Assembly: GCA_951406725.2 (NCBI GenBank)
Contig: OX597828.1
Span: 59,272,001-59,336,000, forward strand
Reading direction: 5' to 3'
Source: Octopus vulgaris
Lineage: Eukaryota
DNA: 64,000 bases
This document shows, one piece after another, positions 12,826 to 64,000 of this stretch. Every line of letters begins with the position of its first letter. Position 1 is the first letter of the stretch. Both the position numbers and the translations under genes were made by a program. The notes beneath the pieces are model-generated. The model was not told the origin of the DNA. It saw only the letters and a list, made by a program, of their open reading frames with translations, and did no database searches.

Positions 12826-13447
12826 AATTTGAAACGACTATTACGCTAATCTGTGATGGAGGCAAGATAGCAGAATTTGAAACGACTATTACGCTAATCT
12901 GTGATGGAGGCAAGATAGCAGAATTTGAAACGACTATTACGCTAATCTGTGATGGAGGCAAGATAACAGAATTTGAAACGACTATTACGCTAATCTGTGA
13001 TGGAGGCAAGATAGCAGAATTTGAAACGACTATTACGCTAATCTGTGATGGAGGCAAGATAGCAGAATTTGAAACGACTATTACGCTAATCTGTGATGGA
13101 GGCAAGATAGCAGAATTTGAAACGACTATTACGCTAATCTGTGATGGAGGCAAGATAGCAGAATTTGAAACGACTATTACGCTAATCTGTGATGGAGGCA
13201 AGATAGCAGAATTTGAAACGACTATTACGCTAATCTGTGATGGAGGCAAGATAACAGAATTTGAAACGACTATTACGCTAATCTGTGATGGAGGCAAGAT
13301 AGCAGAATTTGAAACGACTATTACGCTAATCTGTGATGGAGGCAAGATAGCAGAATTTGAAACGACTATTACGCTAATCTGTGATGGAGGCAAGATAGCA
13401 GAATTTGAAACGACTATTACGCTATCTGATGGTGGCGTGATAGCAGC
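12826..13447 (+). repeat. 48-bp minisatellite, 12 full units plus a degenerate unit
   Basis: Unit AATTTGAAACGACTATTACGCTAATCTGTGATGGAGGCAAGATAGCAG; it explains the repetitive ORFs 12819-13463 and 12794-13507. Confidence 0.95.
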
Positions 13448-24095: not shown

Positions 24096-24519
24096 TCTAT
24101 TAGCTAACAAGTAATCTGGTTTCACCAAACATACTGTCCATTTATGATTCTTGAGTTTACTATTACTTTCCCTTCGATTTCATTGGATGTTTTGTCTCCA
24201 AGAGAAAGCAGGTAAGCTCAAGAATTATGTAGATGAGATGAGAAACGTGAAAGCATTTTTGAACACTGAGGTATGGATCAGTGTAAAATTTATAAGGTGA
24301 AAGTTCTTTCCTAAATGTTTTTCGAATAACATTTAGACAGTGTTGCCAGTGAATTTTATTCGCTCGAATTCGAGATTCTTAATTGTCTTTTCAGTTTTAA
24401 TTGATTTTGCTAAATTGTTGGCGCACAGGTAAATAATTTTAATTTCTCAAAGCTAGTAAGCGAATGAAAACTTGCGTAGCATGTTTTACGTTTTTCTGAG
24501 AGCGTTTTGATCATCCTAC

Positions 24520-25435
24520 AACACCTGGAACAACAAGACGTGGAGGAGAAGTAAAACTGCTGAAGGGCACGAAGGCATTAAGTTCGATGATTGCCTTGGG
24601 CGCGTTTATACAGTGCACCAAAATCAGACTGAATGCTTTCACCTCCTTCTTCTTTTACATGAAGTAACAGGCCCAACTTGCTTTCAAGATTTAAGAACTG
24701 TGGATGAAAACGTTTTTGCAACATACAAGGAGGCATGTCAACAGCGTGATCTTCTTGAAGATGACGGGCAGTGGCAAGCCTTCTTATCAGAGGCTTGTGT
24801 ATCCAAGTCGCCCGGAAGCCTTAGAACACTTTTTGGTGTAACACTGCACAATTGTGCACCCAGTAGTCCATATTCTTTGTGGCTTCAATTTAGGAATGAC
24901 CTGTCCGAGGACTTTAGGCGAGCCGCTCAGCTTCGATTCCCTACTTTAAACATAGGCTTCACCAATACAATATACAATCTAGCACTGATTGAGATTGAAA
25001 ACAAGACTTTATCTTTAGGCGGTGACGTAATGACCACTTACAGGCTTCCCCCTGCTGCAAGGCCTACCTCAAATAATCTCCCTTCGGAAATTGTTCGAGA
25101 AACATCTTAAGACATTACTGAACTATCCACATATGTACAGATCAATGAGGCACTACTGCTACCTGGCCAGAAGTACGCCTACGACACTATCGTTCAGCAA
25201 GTCCAGGGTCGTAAAGGTGGCTTTTTCTTCCTTAACGCTCCTGGCGGGACAGGCAAAACGCTCGAAACTGGACTAATTCTTGCAAAAGTAAGGCTACGAA
25301 AGTGCATCGCAATAGCTGTGGCAACTTCGGGCATAGCTGCTACTCTGCTCCCTGGTGGCAGGATTGCACACTCTACGTTTAAGCTTCCACTTAACCTCGC
25401 AAGTTCATCAACGCTTGTTTGCAACATTTCAAAGA
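24520..25435 (+). mobile_element. Helitron RepHel fragment (linker plus Pif1 helicase start), disrupted
   Basis: GPTCFQDLRTVD..FATYKEACQQRDLLEDD, then FFFLNAPGGTGKT (Walker A) and VATSGIAATLLPGGRIAHSTFKLPL; in-frame stop at 25108-25110. Confidence 0.9.
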
Positions 25436-28759: not shown

Positions 28760-28908
28760 ATGTTTTCAAATTTAGTGTGTAATCTGGGAGGCGATATTAT
28801 ATAAGCAAGAATAGCTGACCATAACGGTATGTGTGTTGAAAAGTTTATATGTCTCGGTGGGAAGAATTGTCTTATTAGAGCTAGAAAGTTTTGGTTCAGG
28901 ATAACGCC
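28760..28908 (-). mobile_element. Penelope-like element fragment (RT to GIY-YIG linker)
   Basis: NFLALIRQFFPP, then after a frameshift YKLFNTHTVMVSYSCLYNIASQI, resembling the PLE motif FL.LI..HFP...L.K.FN..TV.VSYSC..NI. Confidence 0.6.
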
Positions 28909-28911
28909 TAA

Positions 28912-29898
28912 GTGGAGGCAGAGTGGATTGTGGCGGCTGTGATCAGCGGCCACGAGGACGAAGTGGATATTCTCCATGCCTCGGTTAAGTCCGAGGGCTG
29001 GAGAGGCGTAACAGTGGAGCTGAACGTGCAGGCGGAGAACGAGGTACTGGTGGACCTGGCGGAAAGCATCAGATTGGGAGACGTGATCATGAGAGTGTGG
29101 GTGGAGGGCAGAGCTCCACGTTGTTACAAGTGTGGCCTGAGGGGTCACATAAGAGCCTTCTGCCCTCCCCCAGGGAAAGAAATGGATTCCGAACCAGAGA
29201 GAGAGAAGCAGAAACCAGAGGAGAAGGAGAGAGTAGAAGAGGAAGAGAATACACAGAAATGGAAGGAAGCTGGAAATAAGAGGAAGAGAAGAATACGAGG
29301 AAAAGAAAATAACATGGAACACCAATCTACCCCAAAACCACCCACACCCTCTGAGTCCCACCCTATTCCTGCAGACAGTGAACCCACCCGCTCCCCCCCC
29401 CCCAACAAGAAAACAAAAGAAAAAAAATAATACACACAGACAAGAGATTGAAATCGATATCAGGCCGTACATTTGTACTATGACTGAACAGAAAGAAGTT
29501 AAAAGTCTAATGGAAGAGTATAAATGGTATGAAGTTGGTGAGACTAGGTATGCTGTGATTGAAAAGAAGAACATAGATGAGTTTATGGTGAGGTGTGAAA
29601 GGGAGAATTGGGAGGTGAAAGATATAAGAATGAGCGATGAATTCGTGGAAAATATGGATGAGTATTTCGGAGTAAGAATGGATATGGAATTTATTCGTAT
29701 TGGCAAAGAACATTCAAGTGACGATGAAAAACAAAGGACAGGTAAGTGATGCTGGCGGACGGGGCCGTTAGTATCGCTTTCATATTATCATTTTCTTTCA
29801 CTTAACAATTCATTTTTCATAAATTTTAATTATAATGTTCTATGTCCCCATGTCTTTTGGTGTCCCCCTCTGTGTCGCCCCTAGTGGGTAATAAAGAA
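28912..29898 (+). mobile_element. ORF1-only non-LTR element, 5'-truncated copy 1
   Basis: Near-identical to 30677-31663 (offset 1765); encodes CYKCGLRGHIRAFC; ends ...CCCCTAGTGGGTAATAAAGAA. Confidence 0.85.
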
Positions 29899-29918
29899 TC
29901 ACCACATCTGAACCATTT

Positions 29919-31663
29919 GGTCGGTTGTGTTTTTTTCGGCTGCTGAAAATTCGGTAAAAAAGAACAAAAAGCGTTGTTGTTGTTGTGGAAATTGTGAACG
30001 GCGTTGATGCGGTTTCGCGTTTCGCTCGTTCTGCGCGTTACACTTTTTCTGTTTTGGCGGCCGTTTTCGGTCTGTCAGACAGAAGGAAATGGACTATGAG
30101 TCTCTAACAGACTTGTCCACGACAGATGAGGAACTGGAACAGGCAATTACAATGAAGCTGATGGAAGAAAAGGCTGGAGTTTTCGAGTCTTTATCAGACT
30201 TGTCTACGTCTGAGAAGGAGCTAGAAATGGCAGCGATGAAATTGGACGAGAATCTGGGTTATACCTATGCCGGTGTAACCAAGAAGGCGGAAGAGAAAGG
30301 GGTCGACTTGGCCAAGCTACCAAGTTACCAGAAATACATGAAAAAGGAAAGCGGTGAGGTGGAACTAGCACCGACACCCAGGAGAAAAGAATGGTATGAT
30401 AAGAGGACCATTATTTACAGGGTGTTCGCAAACGAAAGGAAGAGGGTAGAAGTTGTAACCATGGAGTGGATAGAGGAAGCCCTGAGAAGAACTGAGGAGG
30501 AAATTAATTTTCTGACTCGAGGATCCAAGTACGGTACCGAAGTTGTGCATTTTAAAAGTGAGTCTGCAGCGAGGAAGATGGCGGCGAAGGCAGTGAAGTC
30601 AGAAAAGGTAACACTTTTACCTACGTATTTAAACAGAAGGATTACACGAATAAGGGTGGAGGGAGTGCCACCAAACGTGGAGGCAGAGTGGATTGTGGCG
30701 GCTGTGATCAGCGGCCACGAGGACGAAGTGGATATTCTCCATGCCTCGGTTAAGTCCGAGGGCTGGAGAGGCGTAACAGTGGAGCTGAACGTACAGGCAG
30801 AGACCGAGGTACTGGTGGACCTGGCGGAAAGCATCAGATTGGGAGACGTGATCATGAGAGTGTGGGTGGAGGGCAGAGCTCCACGTTGTTACAAGTGTGG
30901 CCTGAGGGGTCACATAAGAGCCTTCTGCCCTCCCCCAGGGAAAGAAATGGATTCAAAACCACACAGAGAGAAGCAGAAACCAGAGGAGAAGGAGAGAGTA
31001 GAAGAGGAAGAGAATACACAGAAATGGAAGGAAGCTGGAAATAAGAGGAAGAGAAGAATACGAGGAAAAGAAAATAACATGAAACACCAATCTACCCCAA
31101 AACCACCCACACCCTCTGAGTCCCACCCTATCCATGCAGACATTGAACCCCCCCGCTCCCCCCCCCCAACAAGAAAACAAAAGAAAAAAATAATACACAC
31201 AGACAAGAGATTGAAATCGATATCAGGCCGTACATTTGTACTATGACTGAACAGAAAGAAGTTAAAAGTCTAATGGAAGAGTATAAATGGTTTGAAGTTG
31301 GTGAGACTAGGTATGCTGTGATTGAAAAGAAGAACATAGATGAGTTTATGGTGAGGTGTGAAAGGGAGAATTGGGAGGTGAAAGATATAAGAATGAGCGA
31401 TGAATTCGTGGAAAATATGGATGAGTATTTCGGAGTAAGAATGGATATGGAATTTATTCGTATTGGCAAAGAACATTCAAGTGACGATGAAAAACAAAGG
31501 ACAGGTAAGTGATGCTAACGGACGGGGCCGATAGTATCGCTTTCATATTATCATTTTTTTTTTCACTTAACAATTCATTTTTCATAAATTTTAATTATAA
31601 TGTTCTATGTCCCCATGTCTTTTGGTGTCCCCCTCTGTGTCGCCCCTAGTGGGTAATAAAGAA
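29919..31663 (+). mobile_element. ORF1-only (HAL1-like) non-LTR element, apparently full-length copy 2
   Basis: ~170 bp leader, one ORF1-like coding region, ~150 bp trailer with AATAAA; no endonuclease or RT sequence. Confidence 0.8.
30089..31512 (+). CDS. Tx1/L1-type ORF1 protein (RRM-like region, CCHC zinc knuckle, charged/Pro linker, acidic C-terminus); one frameshift in an A-run
   Basis: ORF 30089-31246 with ITRIRVEGVPP and VWVEGRAPRCYKCGLRGHIRAFCP; ORF 31243-31512 joins in frame if the A7 run near 31184-31190 is A8, as it is in copy 1, giving ~474 aa. Confidence 0.75.
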
Positions 31664-32380
31664 TCACCGAATATGAACCATTTTCTTGCACAATGCGTCT
31701 CCATCTTTCCTTTAACCTGAAAATACCTCTTTCTTTATTACCCACAAGGGGCTAAACATAGAGGGGACAAACAAGGACAGACATAGGTATTAAGTCGATT
31801 ACATCGATCCCAGTGCGTAACTGGTACTTAATTTATCGACCCCGAAAGGATGAAAGGCAAAGTCAACCTCGGCGGAATTTAAACTCACAACGTAACGGTA
31901 GACGAAATGCGGTTACGCATTTCGCCCGGCGTGCTAACGTTTCTGCCAGCTCGCCGCCTTTCTTAACCTGAAAATACCCTCTTCCCAGAATTGAGGTGGT
32001 TTCATGGCAAACGTCATCCAAGGAATTGACATTTTTACCATTAAGACTATTCGGCAGAGACCTGAATAAGTGGAAATCCGAAGGAGCAATATCTGGTGTA
32101 TATGGAGGGTGGGGTAACACATCCCAGCCGAGCTGCAGCAATTTTTGTCTGGTTCCCAAAGCATCAAGTGCCGAATATGAACTTTTTTATCTTCCATTTT
32201 AAAGAGTTACAGAATTAACACAGATTATAGGAACATAAACCTTCTTCCATCAAAAGATAGCTTAAACTGTGCTCTAAATGGAGTTGTCGTGGAATCCTAT
32301 TTTATGGACTCAACCATGTTCTAAAATAAGTCGAAAGGTAAGCAACTATAAACCAGCACGAACTTTCCGGACAACCTAAT
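31664..32380 (-). mobile_element. Internally deleted mariner with SINE A inserted at ~31730-31958
   Basis: MEDKKVHIRHLML directly abuts TRQKLLQLGWDVLPHPPYTPDIAPSDFHLFRSL; TIR ...TTCCGGACAACCTAATA; SINE flanked by TTAACCTGAAAATACC. Confidence 0.85.
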
Positions 32381-33861: not shown

Positions 33862-34990
33862 AGTCGGTGAGCTGGAAGAATTGTTAGCATGTCGCGCAAG
33901 ACAGCAGTATTTCGTCCGTCTCTGAGTTCAAATTCCGCCACGGTTGAGTTTGGCTTTCAGGATTGAGAAAATAAGTATCAGTTGAACACTGGGGAAGGAG
34001 TAATAGACTTCACCCATCCCCGAAATTTCTGGCCGTGTGCAAAAATTTGAAATCAATATTTTAAGGCGGCGAGCTGGCAGAAATATTAGCACGCCGGGCG
34101 ATTTGCGTAGCTGTATTTCGTCTGCCGTTACGTTCTGAGGTCAAAATCCGCCGAGGTCGACTTTGCCTTTCATCCTTTCGGAGTCGATTAAATAAGTACC
34201 AGTTACACACTGGGTTCGATATAATCGACTTAATCCGTGTGTCTGTTCTTGTTTGTCCCCTCTATATTTAGCCCCTTGTGCGTAGTAAAGAAATAGGTAT
34301 TTCGTCTGCCGTTACGTTCTGAGTTCAAATTCCGCCGAGGTCAACTTTGCCTTTCATCCTTTCGGGGTCGATAAATTAAGTACCAGTTACGCACTGGGGT
34401 CGATGTAATAGACTTAACCCCTTTGTCTGTCCTTGTCTGTAATCGACTTAACCCCTTTGTCTGTCCCCTCTATGTTTGTCCTTGTCTGTAATCGACTTAA
34501 CCCCTTTGTCTGTCCCCTCTATGTTTAGCCCCTTGTGGGCAATAAAGAAATATAGGTAAGATGTTTTGCGGCATTTCATCCGTTTTTACGTTCTAAGTTC
34601 AAATTTCACCAAAGTTGACTTTGCCTTTCATCCTTTCGAACTCGATAATGTAAATACCAATTTCTTTACTACCCACAAGGGGCTAAACACAGAGGGGACA
34701 AACAAGGACAGACAAACGGATTAAGTCGATTATATCGACCCCAGTGCATAACTGGTACCTATTTAATCGACCCCGAAAGGATGTAAGGTAAAGTCGACCT
34801 CGGCGGAATTTTAACTTAGAACGTAGTGACAGACGAAATACTGCTAAGCATTTCGCCCTGCGTGCTAACGTTTCTGCCAGCTCGCCGCCTTCACGATAAT
34901 GTAAATACCAGTTGAACACTGGGGGTAGATGTAACTGACTTGTCCCCTCCCGCTAAATTACCTTGTGTCAAAATTTGAAATCAGTGTTTT
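33862..34990. mobile_element. Cluster of tandem and nested SINE A copies
   Basis: Plus copies at ~33862, 34065-34550 (tandem units with tail stutter) and 34560-34990; minus copy 34660-34888 flanked by CGATAATGTAAATACCA. Confidence 0.9.
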
Positions 34991-37673: not shown

Positions 37674-37848
37674 CTCTCCATAACACTAGATTTACCAAAT
37701 GCTAGGTACCTCATCCTTCTGACCAGGCGACTCTTTTGATGTCGCCTGGTCAGAAGGATGATGTACCTAGCATTTGATAAATCTATTCTTATGGAGAATT
37801 GCGCTGATGAAAGATATAAAATTATATTTCTAATCTAGAAACATGTTC
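37624..37848. repeat. Hairpin with ~108-bp arms and 9-nt loop, carrying two opposed hammerhead cores
   Basis: Arms 37624-37731 and 37741-37848 with about 5 mismatches; plus-strand core CTGATGA 37804-37810, GAAAC 37838-37842, GTT 37845-37847. Confidence 0.9.
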
Positions 37849-38170
37849 TGAGTTCAAATTCCGCCGAGGTCAACTTTGCCTTTCATCCTTTCGGAGTCGA
37901 TCAAATAAGTACGAGTTACGCACTGGGGTCGATATAATCGACTTAAACCCTTTGTCTGTCCTTGTTTGTCCCCTCTGTGTTTAGCCCCTTGTGGGTAGTA
38001 AAGAAATAGGTATTTCATCTGTCTATATGTTCTGAGTTCAATTGACAACAGGATCGCCCTCGCCTTTCGTCCTTTCAGGGTCGATAAAATAAGTACCAGT
38101 GGGGGTCGATGTAATCGACTTACCTCCGCCTCCGAAAGTGCTAGCCTTGTGCCAAAATCTGAAACCAGTA
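37845..38170 (+). mobile_element. 5'-truncated SINE A followed by a second SINE unit
   Basis: Starts GTTCTGAGTTCAAATTCC; tail joined to GGTATTTC at ~38009. Confidence 0.8.
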
Positions 38171-41696: not shown

Positions 41697-42140
41697 TTTT
41701 ACGTTCTGAGTTCAAATTCCACCAAGGTTGACTTTGCCTTTCATCCTTTCGAACTCGATAATGTAAATACCCATTTCTTTACTACCCACAAGGGGCTAAA
41801 CACAGAGGGGACAAACAAGGACAGACAAACGGATTAAGTCGATTATATCGACCCCAGTGCGTAACTGGTACTTATTTAATCGACCCCGAAAGGATGAAAG
41901 GTAAAGTCGACCTCGGCGGAATTTGAACTTAGAACGTAGTGGCAGACGAAATACTGCTAAGCATTTCGCCCTGCGTGCTAACGTTTCTGCCAGCTCGCCG
42001 CCTTCACGATAATGTAAATACCAGTTGAACACTGGGGGTAGATGTAACTGACTTGTCCACTCCCGCTAAATTACTTTGTGTCAAAATTTGAAATCAGTGT
42101 TTTTCATATTTTAAGATGGACGTTTGAAAGAGGAGAATAT
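41697..42140. mobile_element. Nested SINE-in-SINE composite duplicated with ~34585-35027
   Basis: Same host SINE, same inserted minus-strand SINE A, same TSD, and shared unique flank TTTTCATATTTTAAGA.GGACGTTTG. Confidence 0.85.
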
Positions 42141-55265: not shown

Positions 55266-56044
55266 AAAATTGTCATCTGTTGGTATTAATACATCGATTA
55301 GAAAGCATTTTTTTCTTCGTGATATCTGACAACTATATCTGGTCTGTTGGCCTTAATTTCTCTATCTGTGTGTATTGGTATATTCCAGAGTATGGTTGCT
55401 TTCTCGTTTTCTGTGGCCTTTTCTGGCATGTGCCAATACCATCTTTTTTCTGTTGTTATTCCAGAGTATTGGAATAGTTTCCAGTGTATATAGGTCCCAA
55501 CTCTGTCATGTCTGTGAATATATTCCTTCTTAGCCAGAACTGGGCAGCCAGAGACAATATGATTTATTGTTTCTTGTCCATCTCTACATATTCTGCAGTT
55601 ACTTGTATTTCTTTGCATTACATGTTTTTGGTAATTTCTGTTGGGAAAGCTTTCATCTTGTGCTGCAATTAAAAATCCTCCAGTCTCTGCTTTGAGTCCT
55701 GAACTTCTCAGCCTTTGCTGGAATTTTACTTTGTCTATTTCTTTTCCGTTTACTTCAATCCAGTATTTGCCATGAAGGGACTTTCCTTGCCATCGTTTTA
55801 CCATGATTCGTTGCTGCTCCAATTTTAGTTTGGATTTCAGTTGTTTTACAGCTTTTGTTGTTTCCTCTTTTTCTTCACAGTTGTTAGGTACTATGATTTC
55901 TTTTTAGCATTTGTCAGCTTCCTTAAAGACTGAAACAGTTTTTGTTCTGTTCGTGTTTTGTGACTAATTGTATTAGTTTTCCTTGCTACTGAAGTAGGTG
56001 TTTCTGTAGTCTTATGGAAGTTATTCTGTAATAGTGTTCTAGCT

Positions 56045-57045
56045 TCCTTACCTTTGTCGTAGACAGACGTGTTTTTTTTTGGCGGTGAGTCAAACGTTTT
56101 GTTGCACGTGGATAATTTTTCTATTGTTGAATGTTTATTGTTGAATATTTTCCAAATGTTGAACATTGTTGAACTTTGAAAGATTTTGTGCTTTTTCCCG
56201 GTGACGGGAGAAAGTAATTGTTGAAATATTGAAATTATTAATATTGAACTTATTAATATTACTAATATTGAACTTATTAACGCCGTTGTAGGCTTTATTG
56301 TCGTGCCCTCCCCCCCACCAGCGGGGGTGGCATTTGAACTGTTATCCTCATTAAGAGGAAAAAATATTATAGGTTTCCCGTTTTTTGGCATAAGCAATTT
56401 ATTATTGCGAGAAAAATTAAATTTTAGCTATTGTGGCATCCGTCACTAGCGTGGGCGAGATTTGAACTGTTGTCCTCGTTGTGAGGAAAAAAGAAAAATA
56501 TTATAGGTTTCCCGTTTTTTTGGATTCTATATTTTATTATTGTGTGGAAAAAAATTAATTTCGAACGTTGTAGGCTTTGTTGCTACGTCTCGCCCCCCAG
56601 TAGGAGTGGGATTTGAACTGTTGTCCCCGTTAAGAGAGAAAAAAAAAGTAAAAAATTATAGGTTTCCCTTTTTCTGGGATTAAATTGTGTATCATTTATT
56701 TCGAACGAATATGTCGGTCGAAATAATCCAAGAAACGAACCAGCTGCATGAGCCAGCAAAAAAGTTCGCGGCAGTAACCGCTGTATCTTAAGTGGAAGTC
56801 AAAAACAGGAAAGAAAAAGCAAGGGTCTACCCTGGTGCTCGGATGCCTATCCTTCAGAGAAGCCATTACAAGTTTCATTTGTAATGAGCAACGCTTAAGT
56901 CAAAAGTTATAAACATATTTATTAAATTATTGTATATTTTAAATTGTAAATATTTAATCACTACAGCTACTTCACCCTTTTATGTTTGTCTGTTCTTATT
57001 CGTCCCCTCTTTGTAATACCTTCATGGCAAATATTTATGAAATAA
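56045..57045 (+). mobile_element. ~1-kb non-coding retroposon-like insertion
   Basis: 15-bp TSD AATAGTGTTCTAGCT at 56030-56044 and 57046-57060; three diverged ~140-150 bp internal repeats; tail TTTGTCTGTTCTTATTCGTCCCCTCT...AATAAA. Confidence 0.8.
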
Positions 57046-58114
57046 AATAGTGTTCTAGCTGTATAAGGCCTCTACCACCTTCGATGCATTGTATATTTAA
57101 CCTTTCTATGTCAGATTTTGGGTGGTGCATCCTAAATCCTGTCATTATTTCTCTTCTTTTCCTGTCTATTTTGATTAGTTCATTAAGAATCCAGTAAATA
57201 AATTTTGTAGTTGTAACTTATAACTAAGACGGCTAGAGTGTTGACACCTATTATCTTGTTTTTCGCATTGAACTCTGTTTTCAGTATTAATCTGACTCGT
57301 TTATAGTATTCCTTTTTTATTTTCTCATTCATTTGTGTGTGTTGTATCGTATCTAGTTCATTGATTCCTAAGTATTTGTATGTTTGGCTTTCATTTGCTT
57401 TATTTAGTATGATGTTGCTACTCTTAACTAGTTTTCCTCTTTTCAAGATTGCTTTGGCGCATTTTTCTAAGCCAAATTTCATGTACTGTCTGTAGTAATG
57501 TTTCCAGTTGTTTATCATTTGTAGCGTACAGTTTTTAGATCATCCACATATAAGAGGAAGAGATGATTGTTTTGCCCTAACCGTTGTTTCCATATCCATT
57601 TCTAATAAGTATGTCAGATACAGATGTCAGTGCCAAGCAATAAAGGACGAGTGAAAGCGTTCTCCCTGGAATATTCTTCTTCCAATGGAGATGGCTTTTG
57701 TCTAGAGCGGTAACACTGCCATTTATTCATGGAATGTTTTATATATTTTATGATTATTGGTGCCACCTTGTTCATGGCTAGTGTTTCTAGGATCCATGTG
57801 AGGGAAATACTATCAAAAGCCTTTCAGTAATCAATCCAGGCCATACTGAGGCCATTTTTCTTTCTGCGGCTCTCTTCAGTTATGGCTTTATTGATCAGTA
57901 GCTAATCTTTACAGCAGTCTGAGCCCTTGCCGCAACCCTTCTGCTCTTCTGGGAACAAGTTGTTTTTTTCCAGATGTTTGCTCAATTTCAACGGCCGTAA
58001 AGGCTTTGTAAATTGTAGGGAAATAAGTTATCGGTTTATTACAACGTCAACACAACAACAACAATAATAATAAGAAGAATAACAATAATGATAATAATAA
58101 TAATAACTTTTTCA

Positions 58115-59712
58115 TTAACTTTAGATTACGGAAAACATTATGGAAAGTACAGGACAAAACAAAGAATTGTGTGAGTATGTGTGTGTTGTTGTGAGGGTTT
58201 TGCGTGTAGACAAAACTAACAAAATTAAAAAAAAGAAGAAAGAAATCAACAATAGGGAGGATACGTTCGAGGGATGCTCATGGAAAAACCCCATAAAAAA
58301 ACCATGGGGACCCTGACTTCTGGGGCAGCTGCCTTTTTTCCTTTCCTTTTTTTCCAACTACAGGCGTATGCTTAGGGGAGGCCCCTTCACTCGCACCATT
58401 CTCACCACTTACTTTCATCAAACTTTCAGCAAAGTTGCTTGAAGACAACACTTCCATCTCTGCCCTTATTTTCTTTTTCAAGTGAAACCTGGAGTTCATC
58501 AGGGATTAGTCAAAGGAAAAAGTGTTTGTCTTCAGCCCCTTCAATCTCATCCACTATACAATCTCTTTCGCCATGGTCACCAGGCATATAAAAACAGCTT
58601 TTCCTTCTCGATTAAAGGAAAAACGGCGGGGTGATCTTCACAATGGATTCAGTTGACAGCCGGATCCATCCCACACGCGACAGCAGGTGTTCGACATAAA
58701 CCTACATGTCAGTAATGCTAAGGCACTGGATGATTGCATGTAGGACCGTCTCGTCGTCCTGTGCGCATCTCGGACGTCCTCGGCTGACGGCACTTCCGTG
58801 CCTATAAAGTTTTTCTTGAATAAGCAAAGCTCCCCGGTAGCATTGTTAGGGCAGAAAGTTTTGGAAATTATCCATCGATTCTGACCTGAAAGTTTTCCGG
58901 ACAAGAGCGACTAGCTGATCTTCTTCGACACCCAAGGTCTCCCAAAGAACGTCGTCGTGCTTTTCCTCCACTAATCCTCTATAAAATGCTTAAGTGGACG
59001 TTCTGCCTATCGCACTGTGCGCTTAGCAGAGAGCTGTGAGCGCTTGAAGACAATTCACTTTCCAAATGCTCCCCACCCCCGATCTCTTTTTACCCAGGAC
59101 AGCAGCTCTGTTAAAGAAACTAGTTGCGGAAATAAGTATCTAGCAAACGGCGACCACACATGTTCATCGTCAAGGAAACACTGGAGATGTCGTAGCCTCG
59201 GCGCGTATCTGCACAACATCAACCATGGCATGCCCAGGTTACCACTCAGCGGGTACTGGCAGCAGATAGACCACCTGACCATCAGGACGCGTCCCTTCCG
59301 CAAGAAGCGGAAGAGTATACGATCCAGCGTAACCAGACGGAGGCCAGCACAAAGCCCGACGCTCAAGCGATAGAAGATGACGGACGCGGTATACGCACTA
59401 GCCACCTCTGCCCGATCTTTCAGGGATAGCTTTCTCTCGGCCCATTTCTGGGTGAGAGTAGTCACCTTGCTCGTTACCTCGTCCCAGCTTTTGTCCACCT
59501 GGAGGTCCGGACCAAACCAGATCCCGAGCAATTTAACCGGCCCGTCCGTTCAGCACCCAATAACGGAGTTGGATGGTACGGACTTGCTTCTCCAGGTGCC
59601 GAGCCGCAAGCCCACTGATATTGCCTGGTTAATTGTTGCCCTTGAAACTGCCTCGTAGTCTATGAGAGCGGTGCCGATCATTTCTATGTGTTTATGATCC
59701 GGCACCAGTCGG
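58115..59712 (-). mobile_element. Tx1/L1-clade LINE ORF2 3' half plus 3' UTR, decayed
   Basis: DYEAVSRATINQAIS, LLGIWFG, KWAERKLSLKDRA, and FRFLRKG...G.LGMP are Tx1-type post-RT motifs; truncated just after the expected YADD; frameshifts and stops. Confidence 0.8.
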
Positions 59713-59859
59713 CACTGTGTCTAACACGACCAATCATCAGAAATTTTGACACCTCCTTCGGGTTTGTTGTCCTACATCGCTCATAAAGTAAATTTGGAGG
59801 AACTGTGGTTGTTCATTTGTGGTTAACAGGGAACCAATGAGGGGATAGACTTGCACTTG

Positions 59860-62794: not shown

Positions 62795-64000
62795 TTTAGG
62801 ATTTCTACGGAACAAATCGCCCATGTACAATCGCCTAAGAAAGCCTTTATGGATGACGTGACACTTCTAGCTACAGATAAACAAATCATGCAGAATGCCC
62901 TTTTGAGATTAGACGAACGTGTAAGGTGGTCAAGGATGCGATTTAGAGCAAAAAAGTCGCGTAGTCTGACATTTGTTAAGGGAGTGCAGAAAGAATTTAA
63001 ATTTCGAATATCGGAAGAAAGCATTCCAACAGTCAAGGAAGAGCCCGTCAAGAGCTTGGGACGAGTATACGCTGGAACATTGTCAGATAGAAGTCGTGGG
63101 ATTGAAATTATGAAACAGGCCGAGGCTGGGTTATCAGCGATTGATGTTTCGAAGTTACCAGGTAAATATAAAATTTGGTGCTTGCAGTTCGGCCTGTACC
63201 CGCGACTTGCGTGGCCACTTTTAATATACGAAGTAGCATTGTCACGAGTTGAAAAGATCGAACAAAAATGTAATGTGTTCATTAGAAAGTGGCTAGGTCT
63301 ACCTCGTATGTTGAACAGCTCAGCTCTTTATCGTAAAAGAGGTTCGTTGCAGTTACCAATAGCATCAATAGTCGAAATATATAAGTTGGGGAAGATACGG
63401 ACGGTCATGATGCTGAGAGAATCGAAGGATATGGAAATCAGGCGTAACCCACCAGAGGTGAAAACAGCCAGGAAGTGGAAAGCAGAAGCAGAAACTGACA
63501 ACATCTTGTCTTCTCTTACACACAGAGATATGGTGGGAGCAACGCAGAACCATCGGAAAGGATTTGGTTTTGGCGCGGATCAGTTCAGACCGTTTGCAAG
63601 CATGATGCCGTGTGAACGCAGATCTGTTGTTAGCAACAGCGTCAAAACAAGAGAAGCAGAGAGAAGAGAGCTTCATTTGATCCGATGTGTTCATCAAGGT
63701 CAGATGACGAGATGGGAAGAACATGTTGTTGAGAGGAAGATAAGTTGGGATGAGATGTGGAAGTGGACAACATCTCGGCTGAGTTTCCTGATTCGTTCAT
63801 CTTATGATGTTTTGCCATCACCTACGAATCTAGTAAGATGGAACGTCTTAGAGAATGACGTCTGCAAACGTGGAAAAGTCGGTACACTAAAACATATTCT
63901 TTCCAACTGTTCGTTAGCATTGAACAGGTACACATGGAGGCACAACTTGGTCCTTAAGGTTATCTTCAATGCTATAAAGAATCAAATTCATCTCAACAAC
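62795..64000 (+). mobile_element. HERO-like (R2-group, RLE) non-LTR retrotransposon, 5'-truncated, frame open to the window end
   Basis: Manual translation gives no stop from 62795 to 64000: AFMDDVT, KSRSL, PVKSLGRVY, LPGKYKIWCLQFGLYPRLAWPLLIYEV, YDVLPSPTNL, CKRGKVGTLKHILSNC, RYTWRHNLVL. Missing from the ORF track because no stop lies inside the window. Confidence 0.85.

Follow-up and report, generated by a model that had tools for sequence, protein, structure and literature searches.

Non-autonomous LINEs in which ORF1 is present are a named class, whose members include HeT-A (Jockey), HAL1 (L1) and Ag-Sponge (CR1) (PMC5786205, in part), and loss of ORF2 has been repeated among the telomeric Jockey lineages (bioRxiv 10.1101/2025.06.09.658640, in part). 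ORF1 proteins that combine an RRM with a CCHC knuckle are classed as type I; such proteins suit a Tx1 assignment in non-mammalian animals, yet occur in other clades also (PMC5203782, in part). In crocodilians, tandem copies of SINEU-3 sandwich a target-site duplication and have been interpreted as inserted one after the other by Tx1-Mar (PMC4494074, in part). Active L1-Tx1 families have been counted in Octopus vulgaris (PMC13282606, in part), and the main-text parts of that paper that were covered contain no mention of an ORF1-only element. The literature searched held no cephalopod, Tx1-type or SINE-tailed ORF1-only LINE; Repbase and Dfam lay outside this search and may list the family described here.

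The element studied here lies in the middle of a 64-kb stretch of O. vulgaris DNA (the window), where two copies stand head to tail and are flanked by a mariner fragment. It is a dispersed, multi-copy family. The reading we consider probable is that of an ORF1-only non-LTR family that has the poly(A)-less tail of a SINE and likely borrows its endonuclease and reverse transcriptase (EN/RT) from a probably Tx1-type LINE recognizing this tail, with two insertions as the most likely origin of the pair. Taken singly, the locus is a pair of copies with slight decay. HAL1 is a mammalian, L1-derived element with a type II ORF1 and a 3′ end of poly(A), whereas the octopus element has a type I RRM-RRM-CCHC ORF1 and a SINE-shared tail with no poly(A). 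The likeness between the two is that each is non-autonomous and multi-copy and encodes ORF1 alone (PMC5753468 and PMC5786205, each in part). The octopus element thus falls outside HAL1 proper by ORF1 type and 3′ end but works like that class, and the name ‘HAL1-like’, given to it in an earlier sequence-only reading, is an analogy and not a membership because the element ends in a SINE-type tail and not in poly(A).

With HeT-A and the ORF1-only telomeric Jockey elements it has in common the ORF1-only content, a CCHC motif, head-to-tail copies and the need for another family's ORF2 (bioRxiv 10.1101/2025.06.09.658640, in part). Those elements form telomeric Jockey-clade arrays, whereas the octopus pair is interstitial and has a target-like spacer; the comparison with HeT-A arrays, also drawn earlier, is weak because the pair lies within a fragment of a mariner, on both sides of a probable target duplication. 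Ag-Sponge is likewise an ORF1-present non-autonomous LINE (PMC5786205, in part), but is CR1-derived and belongs to a mosquito. The likeness to the crocodilian Tx1-Mar/SINEU-3 system lies in passengers of a transposon-targeting LINE, in tandems that sandwich a target duplication and in a mariner host; SINEU passengers, however, are non-coding, snRNA-derived and end in poly(A), while the octopus passenger encodes ORF1 and has its tail in common with a SINE (PMC4494074, in part).

Copy 1 (28912-29901, + strand) is 5′-truncated, beginning within the second RRM (RRM2), and its left end has no target duplication. Copy 2 (29919-31666, +) is a full-length unit of ~1.75 kb. Over 1007 aligned nucleotides, copy 1 (28912-29918) was 97.6% identical to the 3′ part of copy 2 (30677-31683), as expected of the near-identical head-to-tail pair first recognized here, and the differences amounted to 20 substitutions (three of them in the final 20 nt) and 4 indel letters. 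Seventeen of the substitutions fall within the 987 nt that end at AATAAAGAA. The length of ~1.75 kb originally given to the unit held, but its last 17-20 nt, at 31664-31683, belong to the mariner, and the similar stretch at 29899-29918 is the spacer between the copies. The mariner fragment that forms the right flank (31667-32186, -) matched SETMAR (3.5e-12) and Mos1 (1.8e-9), and contains a SINE copy (31729-31978, -) with a 16-nt target duplication beginning GGTATTT.

The 5′ leader of copy 2 (29919-30088, +) is followed by the first frame of ORF1 (30089-31246, +; 385 aa), which encodes an acidic N-terminal duplication, two RRMs, a CCHC knuckle and a disordered linker, and by a second frame (31189-31512, +; 107 aa) for the acidic C-terminal part. 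A sister subfamily differs in the first ~12 nt of the leader. The acidic N-terminal repeat corresponds to a 48-nt internal duplication (30098-30145 and 30185-30232), and joints in reads revealed other family members with different N-terminal arrangements of ORF1. Examination of the open reading frames of the unit found no RT or endonuclease frame, in keeping with the absence of reverse transcriptase reported earlier, and no further copies of the element body were present within the 64-kb window.

Both copies carry frameshifting homopolymer runs, exactly as had been claimed. Copy 1 has C11 and A8 (29393-29427, +; C run at 29393, A run at 29420) and is one base over the open frame, while copy 2 has C10 and A7 (31158-31190, +; C run at 31158, A run at 31184) and is one base short. 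Starting at the ATG at 30089, the combination C10/A8 does restore an ORF of 474 codons; by length bookkeeping, however, C11/A7, C9/A9 and C12/A6 do so equally, and because all four yield 474 codons the run-length state of the parent is not unique. An intact parent frame has indirect support. One contig (X12 record 16), whose 521 letters cover 526 positions and include a 6-nt deletion, fits an open frame across the lesion because its remaining gaps net +1; the read comparison left out 31148-31198, that is, the C and A runs themselves. Among the 12 of 39 indel rows listed, both of those inside the ORF were 6 nt, which also fits an intact parent, and none of the ten outside it was a multiple of 3. 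Each of the two frameshifts is likely to be a private lesion or a homopolymer error of long-read sequencing. Synonymous changes numbered 7 of the 26 coding changes listed, against 20% expected (P 0.27), so there was no synonymous excess; many of these changes are private to copy 2. At six sites G in copy 1 faces A in copy 2, and never the opposite. RNA editing was considered for these marks and rejected, and the sites are taken as copy 2 changes because the read majorities, where listed, carry G.

A search with the first frame of ORF1 (385 aa, ATG 30089) returned 320 relatives at E<=0.001, and the named entries among the ten relatives examined, six in number, were each an Octopus protein. The AlphaFold model (58-row alignment) was confident at residues ~70-280, and two tandem RRM-fold domains were predicted (30374-30880, +; residues ~96-183 and 184-264). 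A fold search with this model gave the La RRM as top match (Z 9.3, rmsd 2.5, 81 aligned), and a second fold search gave tandem-RRM proteins at E ~1e-5 (U2AF65, E 1.6e-5). The single CCHC zinc knuckle (30887-30928, +) lies below the Pfam cut-off in ORF1 itself and passes it in 6 of the 28 relatives scanned. By its modelled fold, the protein is a LINE type I ORF1 with two predicted RRMs and one CCHC knuckle, and the earlier description of a single ORF1-type protein is borne out by these matches.

No APE/endonuclease or RT domain was found in any of the 28 relatives scanned, and Transposase_22 (mammalian L1 type II ORF1) gave no match to ORF1 at E<=1. The acidic C-terminal part matched no Pfam family above cut-off and gave no usable Atlas match. 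Its likeness by eye to the C-termini of relatives is not supported, as profiles built from those C-termini scored it no better than shuffles (161-242 of 1000 reached the score). A word-indexed protein search with ORF1 produced no match, a weak blank. Pieces of the ORF1 family were also seen fused to predicted host proteins (C2H2, LDL-receptor, WD40) in P0025, P0058, P0062, P0116 and P0135; these are probably gene-model artefacts.

The tail that copy 2 has in common with a SINE (31605-31663, +) terminates in AATAAAGAA without poly(A), and no A-run follows AATAAAGAA behind the tail of either copy. The final ~55 nt of the element aligned with the tail of the SINE that is abundant in the window with a score of 54, the best of 2000 shuffles reaching 30. 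The AATAAA noticed earlier is indeed present, but it is part of this SINE-shared tail of ~55 nt, with no A-run, and does not mark a poly(A)-type end. A common tail is a standard sign of a common enzyme (PMC4824008 and PMC3747384, each in part), and since both end in the same short tail the element and the SINE likely borrow one copying enzyme. The element tail and the neighbouring SINE tail (31605-31790) form an inverted repeat with ~67 nt between them, which could give double-stranded RNA.

A 14-bp RNA hairpin was predicted to span the stop codon of copy 1 (29745-29778, +), with z -4.19 and 0 of 200 shuffles as good; three listed read variants in its 3′ arm keep the base pairs, and copy 2 breaks one pair. 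The tail hairpin by itself was weak (z -1.8 to -0.5). Rfam returned sub-threshold matches only and ARAGORN found no tRNA. The 3′ module of copy 1 (29733-29898, +) occurs in a second family too, which in three of four runs joins at 29733 with different upstream sequence (loose ends of X2, X12 and X19; X12 record 11). The 165 nt so shared begin at the exact start of the predicted long-range stem of the trailer. Compared by eye, the last codons of the second family read FIP(I/V)-stop, against FIRI in the ORF1 of the element, and because of this resemblance the second family is, judged from its last codons, more likely to be another ORF1-only family than the partner. Behind 29898 the loose ends listed begin ATAGG or ACCAC; those with ATAGG start behind the tail in X1, X2 and X12, where element and SINE tails are indistinguishable.

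In the window, GTATTT stands directly after 6 of 11 SINE tails. Together with the GGTATTT-starting duplication of the neighbouring SINE, this argues that the enzyme moving the SINE prefers a site. The SINE tails that landed at GTATTT lie inside other SINE copies, in both orientations, and inside one mariner, giving 184-bp SINE stacks; SINE copies of the window include 1669-2089, 31729-31978, 34063-34550, 37845-38015 and 41765-42004. The element's own flank differs here from the GTATTT site, and its target data come from one locus and mixed loose ends, as against 6 of 11 for the same-tailed SINE.

The spacer (29899-29918, +) was identical to the first 20 nt of the right flank (31664-31683) at 17 of 20 positions in the same register, with a chance of ~8e-8, and its length is given as 17-20 nt since its first 3 nt may belong to the element end. 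By this match, copy 2 is bracketed by an imperfect duplication, and the spacer is a probable target-site duplication. The spacer motif had no match beyond chance elsewhere in the window. Copy 1 has no target duplication, and the mariner end is missing to the left of the insertion. The pair most likely goes back to two insertions, copy 2 first, into a single site and on either side of a target duplication. Copy 2 would have inserted into the mariner, making the duplication of ~17-20 nt, and copy 1 would later have inserted at the upstream duplicate, 5′-truncated and with loss of the left target DNA. Judged by the listed read majorities, copy 2 has the private letter at no fewer than 6 of the 17 differing positions (30955, 30956, 30964, 31082, 31292 and 31531), and two further private changes of copy 2 are suggested by their absence in the read listing; none was shown for copy 1, of which just 239 nt were compared. 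In the left flank, an inverted 8-nt match to the spacer was noted post hoc at 28889-28896, ~15 nt from the junction, and 32 of 4756 random 30-mers do likewise.

The three spacer mismatches in 20 exceed what the divergence of the copies leads one to expect (P 0.005-0.03), which counts against two insertions and in favour of one. It could be that a read-through RNA of a head-to-tail source, or a template jump between two RNAs, delivered both copies at once, the spacer being carried along or being a 5′ extension of the subfamily; we hold such a single event to be a possible, though not the expected, history of the locus. In X2, contigs with a summed depth of 909.5 remain aligned with the spacer when given the mariner flank as an alternative, and the C>A at 29908 is not among the X2 changes listed; on both grounds spacer-like letters occur at other loci. 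In addition, X12 record 12 is another tail-to-head junction with a different spacer, and the copies have minority alleles in common (e.g. 30996, 31340 and 31486), although these fit one event and two equally well. Set against this are the in-register match at 17 of 20 positions to the right flank of this very locus, as a target duplication would leave it, and the seemingly unequal share of private changes between the copies.

Under the preferred reading of two insertions with borrowed EN/RT, transcription would begin from the 5′ leader and the element RNA would be coated by its own ORF1 protein. The ORF2 protein of the partner would then bind the folded 3′ module, and reverse transcription would be primed at the nicked target where a short stretch (AATCA at the junction with the mariner) matches the end of the RNA. 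The partner clade is probably Tx1. The Tx1-clade trait of a type I ORF1 (RRM + CCHC) is present, and it is a necessary but not a specific one: ORF1 proteins with RRM plus CCHC are not unique to Tx1 (PMC5203782, in part), and no clade-fixing APE or RT domain occurred in the 28 relatives scanned. The ORF1 might stem from another clade (CR1, L2 or the Jockey group), or the element might have taken its tail from the SINE and be moved by the SINE's partner, whatever its clade. This we judge unlikely, as a duplication of 16-20 nt, a site preference and stacking are Tx1 behaviour (PMC4494074, in part).

No autonomous partner with this tail was found in the 64-kb window, and neither metagenome scans (protein and DNA pattern) nor a prokaryote-genome scan with the tail pattern gave a match. 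An alignment-based protein search over 1508-4305 aa found no longer fused forms of ORF1, again a weak blank. A decayed 3′ part of an L1/Tx1-type ORF2 does lie in the window (58300-59750, -), with relatives that carry PF00078 and PF13966 and with a different 3′ end; this fragment (58.3-59.7 kb) was considered as the partner and rejected, being without the tail.

Were the partner confirmed, one L1-superfamily enzyme in octopus would serve itself, ORF1-only half-elements and an abundant SINE through one folded poly(A)-less tail. The ORF1-only class would extend past Jockey, L1 and CR1, the clades listed in PMC5786205 (in part), and a natural system would be at hand for asking why passengers retain an ORF1 and how the target is chosen. 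A more speculative proposal, to which we give little credence, is that the ORF1-only subfamily has switched its landing site. The subfamily, which ends in ATCA and has its own 5′ end, would land repeatedly at AATCA by the end of the mariner transposase gene and stack there, whereas most elements with this tail, on the same doubtful proposal, would end in ATAG and land at GTATTT. If this were true, a borrowed Tx1 enzyme would be guided to a new target by the final bases of the passenger RNA, perhaps helped by the passenger's ORF1.

It is improbable that the tandem is an assembly artefact joining two dispersed copies. The spacer is not bridged by any listed X1 or X2 piece, several copy 2 alleles (e.g. 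30237 and 30253) were supported in none of the four runs, and the left flank is not mariner, all of which would suit such a join. However, there are 17 differences between the copies, the spacer resembles the right flank, X1 has contigs (summed depth 146.5) that prefer the spacer over the mariner flank, and the family has other head-to-tail joins.

Among public contigs, part of the unit was present in 20 of the 24 runs listed, from 11 studies and under 4 organism labels, as the multi-copy family foreseen in the sequence-only reading would have it. No run with the unit is labelled as RNA; X12 and X19 may be RNA runs. Contigs of five of these runs were aligned, and all 30 bins of the unit were covered in four of four runs, in totals that include SINE and mariner contigs of the right edge. 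Identities to the element ranged from >99% to <90%, and the epithet ‘young’ applies to one subfamily but not to the whole family. Near-identical pieces have high depth, for example X6 record 32 with 1 other letter in 165 at depth 267, against 4-14 for diverged pieces, which suggests a recent subfamily in a family that is itself older; contig depth is not copy number, and the contigs are short, with no listed piece covering the whole unit. Another 5′ end is carried by 33 X1 contigs. Marks of retroposition at the locus itself are the 5′ truncation of copy 1 and the imperfect duplication around copy 2; no TSDs were seen for copies elsewhere.

These contigs also bear on the proposal that the unit is an internally deleted two-ORF LINE and not a self-propagating ORF1-only family, which is very improbable. 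X19 record 17 (29660-29898) takes in the final 87 coding bases and the trailer as far as the end of the tail, differing by 17 letters and 5 gap letters, and beyond that it continues into another flank. The ORF stop is likewise crossed into the trailer by X1 record 4, and the overlapping X1 records 5 and 7 carry on to the tail. The ORF2-free join of ORF1 to the 3′ end is thus seen in the window copies, in X19 record 17 and in X1 records 4, 5 and 7, and since two of the listed contigs pass across the stop from the ORF into the same trailer at a divergence of ~10%, a one-off deletion of ORF2 is unlikely. What favours a deletion is that the listed loose ends are 24 of 642 and 24 of 127, so that a minority of copies may have an ORF2, and that no listed contig among these short pieces spans the unit; yet contigs ~9-11% diverged share the same ORF-to-trailer join, none of those listed loose ends begins at the ORF stop, and the point of joining in the second family is where the 3′ module starts. 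An EN-RT ORF2 between ORF1 and this tail in other copies had been named as the finding that would speak against an ORF1-only family; among the matches listed, the diverged contigs go from ORF stop to trailer directly.

A Penelope-like or LTR element (pseudo-LTR) was rejected, the unit having a target-like spacer and no RT, GIY-YIG or integrase frame. Elsewhere in the window, decayed frames at 55300-58000 (-) and 62795-64000 (+) are presumably those of R4/Dong-type and Hero-type retrotransposons, which they resemble. A tandem array of 13 copies of 48 bp, in which both strands have open frames, and a putatively Helitron-like frame lie at 12826-13446 and 24511-25107.
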